Positions 3,641 through 39,632 of a stretch of 64,000 bases of DNA are shown piece after piece. Every line of letters begins with the position of its first letter. The first letter of the stretch is position 1. The DNA comes from Myxococcota bacterium (GTDB taxonomy: Bacteria; Myxococcota_A; UBA796; CAJQPC01). The stretch covers positions 1-64,000 of the forward strand of contig JAZAMN010000049.1 of the NCBI GenBank assembly GCA_036229005.1, in the 5' to 3' direction. A program made the position numbers and the translations under genes. Below the pieces are notes generated by a model. It was given only the letters and a program-made list of their open reading frames with translations. It was not told the origin of the DNA and ran no database searches.

Positions 3641-4618
3641 CTGACCCCGCGCTTCTGCTTCCTGGTCCACCCGCTGTCCGCCGGGCAGCGCATGGTGGTG
3701 GGGTTCAGGCGCGGGAACGTGCGGATGGCCCTTGGCCGCCGCGCCGTCGGAGAGCCCGGCCGCATCGCGCGGGTCGGGATCCGCGGCGTCTGCGAGGGCG
3801 AGGTCATCTCCGTCCCGCTGGTCCCCCAGGAGCTGCTGGAGGACCAGGAGCGCGCGCTGGACGGAATGACCCAGGCCGTGCGCGTGGCCGGGCCTGTGCA
3901 GGCCGTGGGGCTGGGCTCGCTGCTCAGCGTCGTGGCGGGCCGCGGCGTGGCTCTGGGCCAGCGCGTCTCCGTCCCCGTGACCACGGGCAACGCGGCGACC
4001 GCTTGGGCGGCCTGGCGCAACGTCCACCAGGTCCTCGCGGAGACCGGACATCGGCGGGTGGCCCTGCTGGGCTTCTCCGGTGGTGTGGGGCGCGTGCTGG
4101 CGGAGCTGCTGGCTGAGGACGGCGTCGAGCTCGTGCTGGGAGGCAAGGGCAGGGCCCTGGAGAAGCGGGCGTCAAAGCTCGGCTTCTCACTGCTCCCAGA
4201 GGCGGAGGCGGCGGCGTCGGCGCCGGTGGTCGTGGGCGCCGCGACGACCGGAGGCACCCTGGATCCCCAGGCGCTCCAGGAGGACGCCGTGGTGTTGGAC
4301 GTGGCCCTGCCCCCGACACTCCAAGCCGGTCCTCGCCCGACCGGGGTGCGCGTGCTGGCTGGAGAAGCGGTCTCCCTGCCCAAGGGGTGGGCCCGGGATG
4401 GCTGGGGGCAGCTCTACCACCTCTTCGCCGGCTATGGCCCCTGGCAGCTCTTTGCCTGCCTCGCGGAGCCATTGGTTCTGGCCCACACCGGCCGGGATCG
4501 CCCCTTCGCGCAAGGGGCCCGGGTGCACGCCCAGGACGTCCGGGACTTCGGCACAGAGGCGGTCAAGCTGGGCTTCTCCCCGCGCTTGGCCCGAGGATGG
4601 ATGCAGGCCCCGGCTTGA
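3641..4618 (+). CDS. Acyl-ACP reductase-like / COG5322-type NAD(P)-dependent oxidoreductase
   Basis: RFCFLVHPL N-terminal motif upstream of first ATG (3692), GLGSLLSVV, TTGN, Rossmann LGFSGGVG, QLFACLAE resembling the catalytic Cys motif of cyanobacterial acyl-ACP reductase; start codon uncertain (CTG 3641). Confidence 0.7.
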   Translation: MTPRFCFLVHPLSAGQRMVVGFRRGNVRMALGRRAVGEPGRIARVGIRGVCEGEVISVPLVPQELLEDQERALDGMTQAVRVAGPVQAVGLGSLLSVVAGRGVALGQRVSVPVTTGNAATAWAAWRNVHQVLAETGHRRVALLGFSGGVGRVLAELLAEDGVELVLGGKGRALEKRASKLGFSLLPEAEAAASAPVVVGAATTGGTLDPQALQEDAVVLDVALPPTLQAGPRPTGVRVLAGEAVSLPKGWARDGWGQLYHLFAGYGPWQLFACLAEPLVLAHTGRDRPFAQGARVHAQDVRDFGTEAVKLGFSPRLARGWMQAPA

Positions 4619-13564: not shown

Positions 13565-14006
13565 CGGGTATCAGGTATCGGGTATCGGGTATCGGGCCTG
13601 AAGTTGCTCCAGGTCGAGGCGCTGTCTTTGGGGCGGACCCGGAAGCGCAGTCGGGGTTCGGACCTGTGGCGCGGACGGAGTTCCAGGCCCTCCCCGAGGC
13701 GCTTCCACAAGTCGGCTGCCACCAACGCGGGGAGCCCGGCCGAGCGTCATCGGCGGTTGCCGGTCCCCGGTCGCCTGTCGCCGCGGGGAGGGGCCGGGTA
13801 TCGGGTATCGGGTATCGGGCCTGAGGTTGCTCCAGGTCGAGGCGCTGTCTTTTGGGCGGACCCGGAAGCGCAGTCGGGGCTCGGACCTGTGGCCCGGACG
13901 GAGTTCCGGGCCCTCCCCGAGGCGCTTCCACAAGTCGGCTGGCATGCACGAGGGAGCTGGCCGAGCGTCATCGGCGGTAGCCGGTTGCCGGTCGCCTGTC
14001 GCCGCG
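13565..14006. repeat. Repeat cluster A: two tandem ~220-bp units, each starting with an (RGGTATC)n heptamer array
   Basis: 13565-13786 and 13795-14006 nearly identical; ends ccggttg-ccggtcc-ccggtcg-cctgtcg-ccgcg. Confidence 0.95.
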
Positions 14007-38583: not shown

Positions 38584-38626
38584 GAAACGAAGAACGCCCC
38601 CTCGGGCGCAGAGGCCGGAGGGGGCG
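38584..38626 (-). terminator. Intrinsic terminator in the tuf leader (attenuator)
   Basis: Minus strand cgccccctccggcctctgcgcccgagggggcg followed by ttcttcgttt. Confidence 0.8.
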
Positions 38627-38659
38627 AGCAGGGCGAGCTTCAGCTTGGGGTGGCTGTGT

Positions 38660-38752
38660 CTACCTGAGGTCCCTCCGGGCGCACGACGACGACGACGCGC
38701 TGGACGAATCCAGCGAGCGGCCAAGGTCGGCGAGGGGGGGGATGAAGCTCAT
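38660..38752 (-). CDS. Putative leader peptide (uORF) [30 protein letters not shown]
   Basis: ATG..TAG, 30 aa, directly preceded by TAACTT-N7; ends 33 nt before the terminator hairpin. Confidence 0.65.
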
Positions 38753-38828
38753 GCGGGCCAAGTTAGGACCCGGTTCTGGAGCGGCAAGGGGGCGGGTGCG
38801 ATTTGCGGGAGAGTACGCCCCAAGGCGC

Positions 38829-39632
38829 TCAGTCGAGCTCGCTGAGCCAGCGCATCCAGTCGGCGGTCACGCCCTCGGGGACCTCGCCGGCGGACAGCCT
38901 GCGGTGCAGTTCGGTGCGCAGCAGGATCTTCTCACGGTGGGGATCCGGTGGGAGGGAGCCCCCAGCCCGATATCCCCCCAGGAAGGCCTCGCGGGTGCCA
39001 GGGAGCTGGCGGAAGACGCTCAGGTGCAGCTCCACGAAGTCCAACTCGCGGGGGCCCCAGCAGCAGTTGACCCAGTCCACCACGCCGCCGATGGTCCAGC
39101 CCTTGCGCGGGTCCCGCACGACCTGGACGTTGCCCAGGTGGTAGTCGCCGTGTACCAATCGGGGGGTGGCGCCGAGAAGCTCCGGGCGCTCGGGGATGGC
39201 GCCCTGGTAGTCGGCCGGCTTCCGGCAGCGGTGGATGGCCGAGAGCTGGCGGCCCATCTCGAAGCAGAGGTCCGGGAGGCCGTCGAGGGAGAGCCGCCCC
39301 TGCTTGTACAGGAACCAGGCGGACTGGCCGGGGACGTGGGCCATGATCGCCCCGCCATCCAGCAGCAGGTAGGGCTCAGGGAGCTTGACCCCGCGCAGGC
39401 GGGAGATGGCCTCGGCCTCGGCGGCGAGGCCTTGCTGGGCGCTGCGGTCCTCCAGGTTCTCCCGGCGGGGGATCTTGAGCAGGCGCTGCTCCGCGCCGGG
39501 CTCGGTGAGCTTGAAGAGAAGGTGCTGCGCCCCGCCCGCCTGTGGCTGGAGACCCTCCACCTGGATGCCGGCCTGGCCGAGCAGCGCCTCTGCCCGCTCC
39601 CGCGCCTGCAAGGCGTCGATGCTCTCGCTCAC
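38829..39632 (-). CDS. Aminoglycoside phosphotransferase-family kinase
   Basis: LLKIP, HGDYHLGN, VVDW; GTG start inferred. Confidence 0.82.
   Translation of the reverse strand: MSESIDALQARERAEALLGQAGIQVEGLQPQAGGAQHLLFKLTEPGAEQRLLKIPRRENLEDRSAQQGLAAEAEAISRLRGVKLPEPYLLLDGGAIMAHVPGQSAWFLYKQGRLSLDGLPDLCFEMGRQLSAIHRCRKPADYQGAIPERPELLGATPRLVHGDYHLGNVQVVRDPRKGWTIGGVVDWVNCCWGPRELDFVELHLSVFRQLPGTREAFLGGYRAGGSLPPDPHREKILLRTELHRRLSAGEVPEGVTADWMRWLSELD

Follow-up and report, generated by a model that had tools for sequence, protein, structure and literature searches.

The divergent EF-Tu gene (tuf) on the minus strand of the window, by which we mean the whole 64,000-nucleotide stretch of DNA that was analysed, is preceded by a leader that is probably a ribosome-controlled transcription attenuator, acting through an intrinsic terminator, that would switch this spare EF-Tu on under general translation slowdown. 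That the leader forms some ribosome-controlled switch, of whatever type, appears very likely. Many other genomes, likely myxobacterial, show this arrangement in front of related EF-Tu genes and tRNA clusters, so its likely role is to restrict continued transcription to times when ribosomes are slow. From 5' to 3', the leader and its gene comprise the following features.

38787-38782, minus strand: -35-like hexamer TTGCCG, 16 nt upstream of the -10 box
38765-38760, minus strand: -10-like hexamer TAACTT, 7 nt 5' of the uORF ATG at 38752
38752-38660, minus strand: uORF of 30 codons, the putative sensor, Ser/Ala-biased, with a peptide that is not conserved
38741-38732, minus strand: C-run in uORF codons 4-7, able to pair with the antiterminator segment; a possible weak protector, not conserved
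38715-38698, minus strand: UUCG-capped hairpin within the uORF, spanning in-frame Asp-Ser codons
38678-38671, minus strand: putative antiterminator segment CCGGAGGG, whose 3' end lies 8 nt ahead of the uORF stop codon
38626-38595, minus strand: terminator-like hairpin, whose 5' arm includes CCCTCCGG (38622-38615)
38594-38584, minus strand: imperfect U-tract TTCTTCGTTTC, directly 3' of the terminator-like hairpin
38538-38533, minus strand: Shine-Dalgarno-like GGGAGG of tuf, about 45 nt beyond the U-tract
38523-37333, minus strand: divergent EF-Tu gene tuf (protein P0001, 396 aa)
37326-37286, minus strand: terminator-like hairpin 3' of tuf, holding the same CCCTCCGGAGGG word, so that the unit is monocistronic here

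Every element listed in the initial annotation (the TAACTT box, the ATG, the 30-residue uORF, the hairpin with its U-rich tail, and tuf) was found in its place, and the -35-like hexamer is absent from that account. This hexamer reads TTGACN in most orthologues, compared with TTGCCG in the window leader, and a strict sigma-70 scan of the window gave no promoter call upstream of the uORF. The uORF start is predicted to be leaderless or near-leaderless. No counterpart of the UUCG-capped hairpin inside the uORF was seen in the leaders of relatives. The upstream neighbour is an APH-family phosphotransferase gene (Pfam PF01636; 38829-39791, minus strand), which ends 41 nt before the -35-like box and was not seen at orthologous tuf loci.

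In the mechanism that we propose, transcription would begin at the uORF ATG (38752) or immediately upstream of it. A ribosome keeping pace would cover CCGGAGGG in the last ~9 codons, the hairpin would fold and transcription would stop near 38585. A ribosome lagging or stalled within the first ~21 codons would leave the segment free to capture the 5' arm of the hairpin before the 3' arm exists, giving read-through into tuf, and we infer that stalling is what induces the gene. The signal would most likely be general elongation trouble, such as EF-Tu- or ribosome-targeting drugs or damaged or uncharged tRNA, with the Ser/Ala codons tuning the sensitivity of a general slow-ribosome sensor.

In the window, the hairpin at 38626-38595 folds at -26.1 kcal/mol, a stability that none of 200 shuffled sequences reached. 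As the initial annotation had it, CCGGAGGG is the exact complement of CCCTCCGG in the 5' arm; scored without regard to position, this pairing was not significant in 70%-GC DNA (p=0.17; z=-0.45), so the 8-bp complement is unremarkable on its own and the case rests on relatives. With position counted, the nascent pairing probability was 0.75 against 0.03 for shuffled uORFs, and 0 of 15 shuffles reached 0.75. A screen of the genome yielded 889 promoter-plus-uORF candidates, five of which satisfied loose hairpin and pairing rules; by context, only the window leader among these five resembles an intergenic leader before a real gene. Rfam returned no family at gathering score for the window, and two lncRNA matches (E 0.9 and 6.8) were dismissed as chance. 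BLAST found no second copy of the leader in its own genome, where a covariance model of the leader gave one weak second match, a gene-end terminator.

Relatives were sampled as 36 loci of the divergent EF-Tu clade; because the genomes are related, the p-values that follow are overstated. A strict rule (TTG-type box, 16-18 nt, TA/CA box, ATG uORF) was satisfied at 21 of the 36 loci against 83 of 3000 random windows, and in these 21 leaders the -10 box lies 6-13 nt from the ATG, with 9 nt in 12 of them. Inspection located nine further uORFs (SD-led, or with GTG or contig-edge starts), which brings the uORF-bearing loci to 30. Hairpins were chosen by a fixed C-run rule, and one is present in 25 of these 30 loci, i.e. 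25 of the 36 clade loci, with 22-35 nt between stop codon and hairpin in 20 of the 25. These 25 leaders formed the set for the pairing tests, from which L122, L123, L130, L001 and L002, carrying other structures, were excluded. No recognisable uORF leader was seen at L273, a further clade member. L126 keeps both antiterminator and terminator but has lost the normal uORF; in its place there seems to be the beginning of an unrelated lipoprotein-like frame, owing to a rearrangement or an assembly join.

Covariation of uORF and hairpin among orthologues had been set beforehand as a test of the initial annotation, and it was observed. In 21 of 25 leaders (7.1 expected), the segment that pairs best with the hairpin 5' arm has its end within the final 24 nt of the uORF, and in 22 of 25 a leader's own arm scores higher than foreign arms do on average (permutation p 5e-5), a result that holds with one leader per genus (n=18). 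In the terminator stem, 5 of 10 pairs are changed on both sides in a 22-row alignment (2/500 shuffles), a count that is as high with the partner slid by +1, since G/C runs and alignment errors permit it. Variant arms are matched by variant segments in L085, L111, L128, L131, L134 and L136; the leaders L120 and L121 pair poorly, and a matching G-run on the 3' side is missing from L085 and L111. The antiterminator segment is read in all three frames, as Arg-Arg in the window and as Gly-Gly or Glu-Ala/Glu-Gly in relatives, so the Cys-Ala-Arg-Arg codons first singled out do carry the segment here but are incidental. What is conserved is a predicted RNA switch and not the uORF peptide, and, as far as the comparison of sequences goes, the uORF attenuator is real and conserved.

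Folding was modelled with a 30-nt ribosome mask on a transcript in which the 5' arm had been made and the 3' arm had not. In the window leader, the antiterminator probability was 0.54-0.80 with the P site at codons 1-21 and ~0 from codon 22 onwards, and the nascent probability was 0.53 without a ribosome and 0.8 with codons 1-4 masked. Across leaders, masking of codons 2-7 gave a value above 0.4 in 21 of 23, whereas a mask over the stop did so in 2 of 23, which is the switch geometry predicted from the window, and the mean probability was 0.76 in real uORFs versus 0.12 in shuffled ones. This masked-fold geometry and the covariation in orthologues support the competing antiterminator proposed initially. 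Without a ribosome the prediction is mixed (>0.4 in 14/23 leaders, <0.15 in 8/23), and a 1:2 protector helix was inconsistently predicted across leaders. As for the choice between terminator and antiterminator, the geometry fits, but at equilibrium the terminator of the full leader forms in 20 of 23 leaders even without a ribosome, so the switch would have to be co-transcriptional and rest on folding kinetics.

Compared with shuffles, the uORFs use more Ser, Leu, Phe, Ala and Asp and less Pro, Arg and His (z of 3.3 for Ser, 89 vs 66; -5.5 for Pro; -4.3 for Arg). The same attenuator could accordingly be a dedicated serine (seryl-tRNA) sensor, like the classical amino-acid leaders, a reading that we consider unlikely. 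It would account for the Ser excess, for SSS in 10 of 30 uORFs, for in-frame Asp-Ser in 8 of 18 uORFs (2.05 expected) and for the placement of Ser in the window uORF, where 8 of 9 Ser codons fall where a stall would free the antiterminator; Ser makes up 19% of the stall-permissive zone versus 13% outside it. It is at odds with the 6 of 25 tuf-linked uORFs that hold at most three Ser, with the Ala-rich uORFs of L128 and L129 (15 and 12 Ala) and with the five uORFs before tRNA clusters, which have only 0-2 Ser each; moreover, a run of three TCG codons is seen in just 4 of 30 uORFs and the downstream gene makes no serine. Ser is enriched but not universally so, and these compositions make general slow-ribosome sensing the most likely reading, in preference to a serine-only one.

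Two other candidates for the sensed feature were rejected. The Pro-Pro pointed out in the window uORF is present there but not conserved, occurring in 2 of 30 uORFs against an overall depletion of Pro, which disqualifies it as a stalling motif, and a pan-codon leader finds no counterpart in the 12.2 distinct amino acids per uORF (12.4 in shuffles). Regarding drugs that might set off the general slow-ribosome sensor, the accessible text of PMC6685928 describes a resistant second EF-Tu as helping against ternary-complex blockers and not against kirromycin-type drugs beside a sensitive copy, so GE2270A- or pulvomycin-like stress would fit better than kirromycin.

A uORF switch might instead act mainly through translation initiation or Rho, the hairpin being a pause or structural element and not an intrinsic terminator. 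Precedents are toiL-topAI (PMC12121999) and Salmonella tufB (PMC12360218), as far as the available portions of these sources describe them, and such an action would suit the weak or absent U-tracts of L083, L084, L127, L134, L136, L085 and L111 and the position of the hairpins near the tuf start in L085 and L136. We hold it to be improbable, since there are at least 4 U per 10 nt in 18 of 23 leaders (the tract being weak in 5 of 23), the SD region of tuf in the window leader is nearly unstructured (-2.7 kcal/mol) and distant from the U-tract, almost identical hairpins are found after tRNA genes and gene ends in these genomes, and the leader also heads tRNA genes, which are untranslated. Slightly less probable still is a plain terminator of an upstream transcript, arising from the lineage-common CCCCTCCGG palindrome beside a chance ORF and a chance complement: this hairpin word also stands at the ends of other genes and after tRNA-Pro, 11 of 31 covariance-model matches in the order look like such terminators and the phosphotransferase gene ending at 38829 lies on the same strand, but the upstream neighbour and its strand differ among orthologues, no promoter-like site was found between hairpin and tuf in 25 of 25 leaders, the periodicity of 18 uORFs is coding-like (GC3 0.80 vs GC1 0.60 and GC2 0.64) and the complement covaries with the variant arms.

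The putative attenuator with an intrinsic terminator is found beyond the tuf loci. The covariance model of the leader gave 31 matches in 28 of 151 genomes of the order: 12 before a tuf paralogue, 6 before tRNA genes or clusters for which the stretch retrieved shows no tuf (G001, from the genus of the window, G019, G440, G059, G450 and G425), 2 that have a uORF but run out at a contig edge, and 11 that resemble plain terminators, many of them after tRNA-Pro. A further tRNA cluster lies behind a leader in G067. In G133 (L260/L277) the leader precedes a small HTH-like gene, not tuf or tRNAs. Twelve leaders outside the training of the model show 22-34 nt between stop and hairpin and a cognate permutation p of 0.022, evidence that is partly circular because the model encodes the segment.

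Five of the clade loci sit inside tRNA arrays. G194 and G221 each have the leader, here with a uORF of 108 and 100 codons respectively, in front of a 37-tRNA array; the tuf paralogue is part of this array, and HNH and TROVE/Ro60 genes come after it. In G047, five tRNAs and tuf are preceded by the hairpin part of the leader. The leader is thus at the array head for three of the five array-embedded paralogues that have none directly upstream; the array-head matches are weak at genome scale (E 0.6 and 1.7) and rest on position and anatomy. No array of the 37-tRNA type was found in the window's own genome. Since the leader would gate tRNA arrays in relatives, often including tuf, it is likely a control element of a translation-rescue module.

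Two further motifs were observed around these structures. At three array heads a palindrome-like GACATC..GATGT lies behind the terminator and overlaps a TTGACA-like box (L248 ~13640-13670, minus; L249 ~4300-4330, plus; L255 ~125-150, plus), and it is possibly an additional promoter together with an operator. Behind tRNA-Pro genes, many genomes of the order carry almost identical U-tailed CCCCC-T-CGG hairpins, apparently at integration sites, as in L238-L240, L242-L245 and G000:C54 near 72954.

The gene behind the window leader encodes a three-domain EF-Tu with an intact P-loop, T61, D80-H84 and N135/D138. P0001 exceeds the PRK00049 cut-off (524.5 vs 449) and falls under that of TIGR00485 (504.5 vs 522.4). 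The housekeeping tuf of the same genome lies on contig C11 behind tRNA-Thr/Tyr/Gly/Thr; its product is ~56% identical to P0001, whose gene is without the GGT/GCT high-expression codon bias seen in the housekeeping copy. Of 154 genomes of the order (own genome counted), 23 carry homologues at 60-69% identity, and close homologues are present in 18 of 401 genomes sampled across the phylum; the three other genomes of the genus yielded none. A quick maximum-likelihood tree built from 79 proteins places 29 clade members on one side of a branch (SH-aLRT 100), and five actinobacterial EF-Tu3-like proteins group separately (SH-aLRT 100); the clade may be sister to actinobacterial EF-Tu3. The housekeeping EF-Tu of relatives falls together with a Myxococcota record in this tree, which makes the host a likely member of Myxococcota. 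A metagenome scan with the clade alignment recovered mostly housekeeping EF-Tu, with 2 of 80 loci being clade members, and a plasmid search gave 27 records, all below 60% identity. Two metagenomic clade members, L138 and L192, form a long-branch pair and lie within tRNA-rich regions. Extra EF-Tu-like genes of 46-48% identity are present in two genomes of the same family (G020:C99:1256-2398 and G016:C801:1227-2372).

R333G is found in 36 of 36 clade members, and changes are frequent at 160, 216, 218, 259 and 262 (E. coli numbering), including E259Q and D216G/F218H. We take these positions, 333 among them, to line the drug pockets of EF-Tu; a literature search for a link between the clade substitutions and EF-Tu drug sites returned no paper. 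The three closest proteins (P0001, P0002 and P0003) share an RTTA(D/N)I insertion (P0001 residues 119-123) and Q124T, unseen elsewhere in the clade. Escape from Doc-type phosphorylation, the site of which is presumably T382, was rejected as an explanation, T382 being retained in 35 of 36 members.

Taken together, Myxococcota may hold a portable, repressor-free translation-rescue regulon, in which one family of uORF attenuators measuring ribosome speed would directly gate whole sets of spare tRNAs, genes for RNA repair and an EF-Tu clade whose drug pockets are remodelled, and in which the spare EF-Tu, by speeding translation of its own sensor, would close a feedback loop; we advance this tentatively and rate its chances as a little short of even. 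The clade would be a second distinct bacterial EF-Tu clade besides the actinobacterial one, with its own likely built-in stress switch. The leader renders testable both the role of spare EF-Tu copies and the switching-on of long tRNA arrays outside cyanobacteria, and if the signal is EF-Tu inhibition, it would offer a ready-made sensor for drugs of a class to which few inducible responses are known. No published description of the leader or of the EF-Tu clade was found in a literature search that reached few subscription papers.

Classical leader-peptide attenuators (trpL, hisL, leuL, ilvB) combine a uORF, competing 2:3 and 3:4 helices and a U-tract. The tuf leader shares the uORF, the competing helices and the U-tract with them, but has no conserved control codons tied to its downstream product, EF-Tu. 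Likeness to the long tRNA arrays (L-arrays) and the Anabaena trn operon is limited to G194 and G221, with their long tRNA array and HNH and RNA-repair (TROVE/Ro60) neighbours. In the accessible text of the sources, those arrays respond to translational stress by induction, lie beside HNH and rtcB genes and are controlled by direct repeats and the TrcR repressor (PMC8421152; PMC10272220); the main text of PMC8421152, in the form available, has no occurrence of 'attenuat' or 'leader'. Salmonella tufB is described as subject to early Rho-dependent termination when ribosomes are fast and to read-through when EF-Tu is short, in a uORF-like manner (PMC12360218, accessible part). Unlike the tuf leader, this control acts on a housekeeping copy and without a separate intrinsic terminator/antiterminator pair.

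Streptomyces EF-Tu3 (actEF-Tu2) resembles the clade in being a dispensable-looking divergent second EF-Tu with a stress-linked expression logic. Both presumably carry changes near the drug-binding pockets. EF-Tu3 differs in forming a separate clade in the quick tree, at 53-54% identity, and in its substitutions (G275A, R230A/K, D216N, F218L and R262G), only the change at 160 overlapping. According to the available text of the respective sources, Streptomyces tuf3 is stress-induced through the WblC regulon with control at the promoter (PMC7157823), the drug resistance of EF-Tu3 is summarised in PMC12309360 and PMC6804068, and actEF-Tu is named as the only distinct bacterial EF-Tu subfamily (PMC4342817). 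EF-Tu3 genes have leaders of their own, with a uORF and a different hairpin: all five actinobacterial EF-Tu3-like genes examined (L279-L283; L280-L282 are Streptomyces EF-Tu by source names, their tuf3 orthology being inferred) show a leaderless-looking Ala-rich uORF of 31-44 codons that ends in GAR[RS], lies 90-260 nt upstream of the EF-Tu start and is followed by a long hairpin beginning at the stop codon. In four of the five an A-run directly precedes the -35-like box, a feature that has been described for WblC promoters. The accessible literature yielded no description of this type of leader, and a published note on the tuf3 leader is possible.

The closest parallel is the whiB7/wblC attenuator, in which, as the accessible text of the sources has it, a uORF, an antiterminator in or near its 3' end and a Rho-independent terminator are arranged so that efficient translation leads to termination and translation stress to read-through (10.1101/2023.06.02.543512; PMC11550727). 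The tuf leader likewise has, judged by sequence, a short uORF at the transcript 5' end, a predicted intrinsic terminator between uORF and regulated gene, a modelled antiterminator that excludes the terminator and could be covered by a ribosome close to the stop codon, and a biased amino-acid make-up (Ala in whiB7/wblC, Ser/Ala in the tuf leader). By analogy, the leader is predicted to work like the whiB7/wblC attenuator, but it differs from the whiB7 leader in having tuf downstream and no Rfam match. It also occurs in another phylum, its uORF is mostly shorter (22-42 codons, ~100 at two array heads), and it would gate an EF-Tu paralogue and tRNA arrays directly, not a transcription factor. The attenuation mechanism itself is of an already known kind; what is added is its link to bacterial tRNA arrays and the evidence against a serine-only reading.
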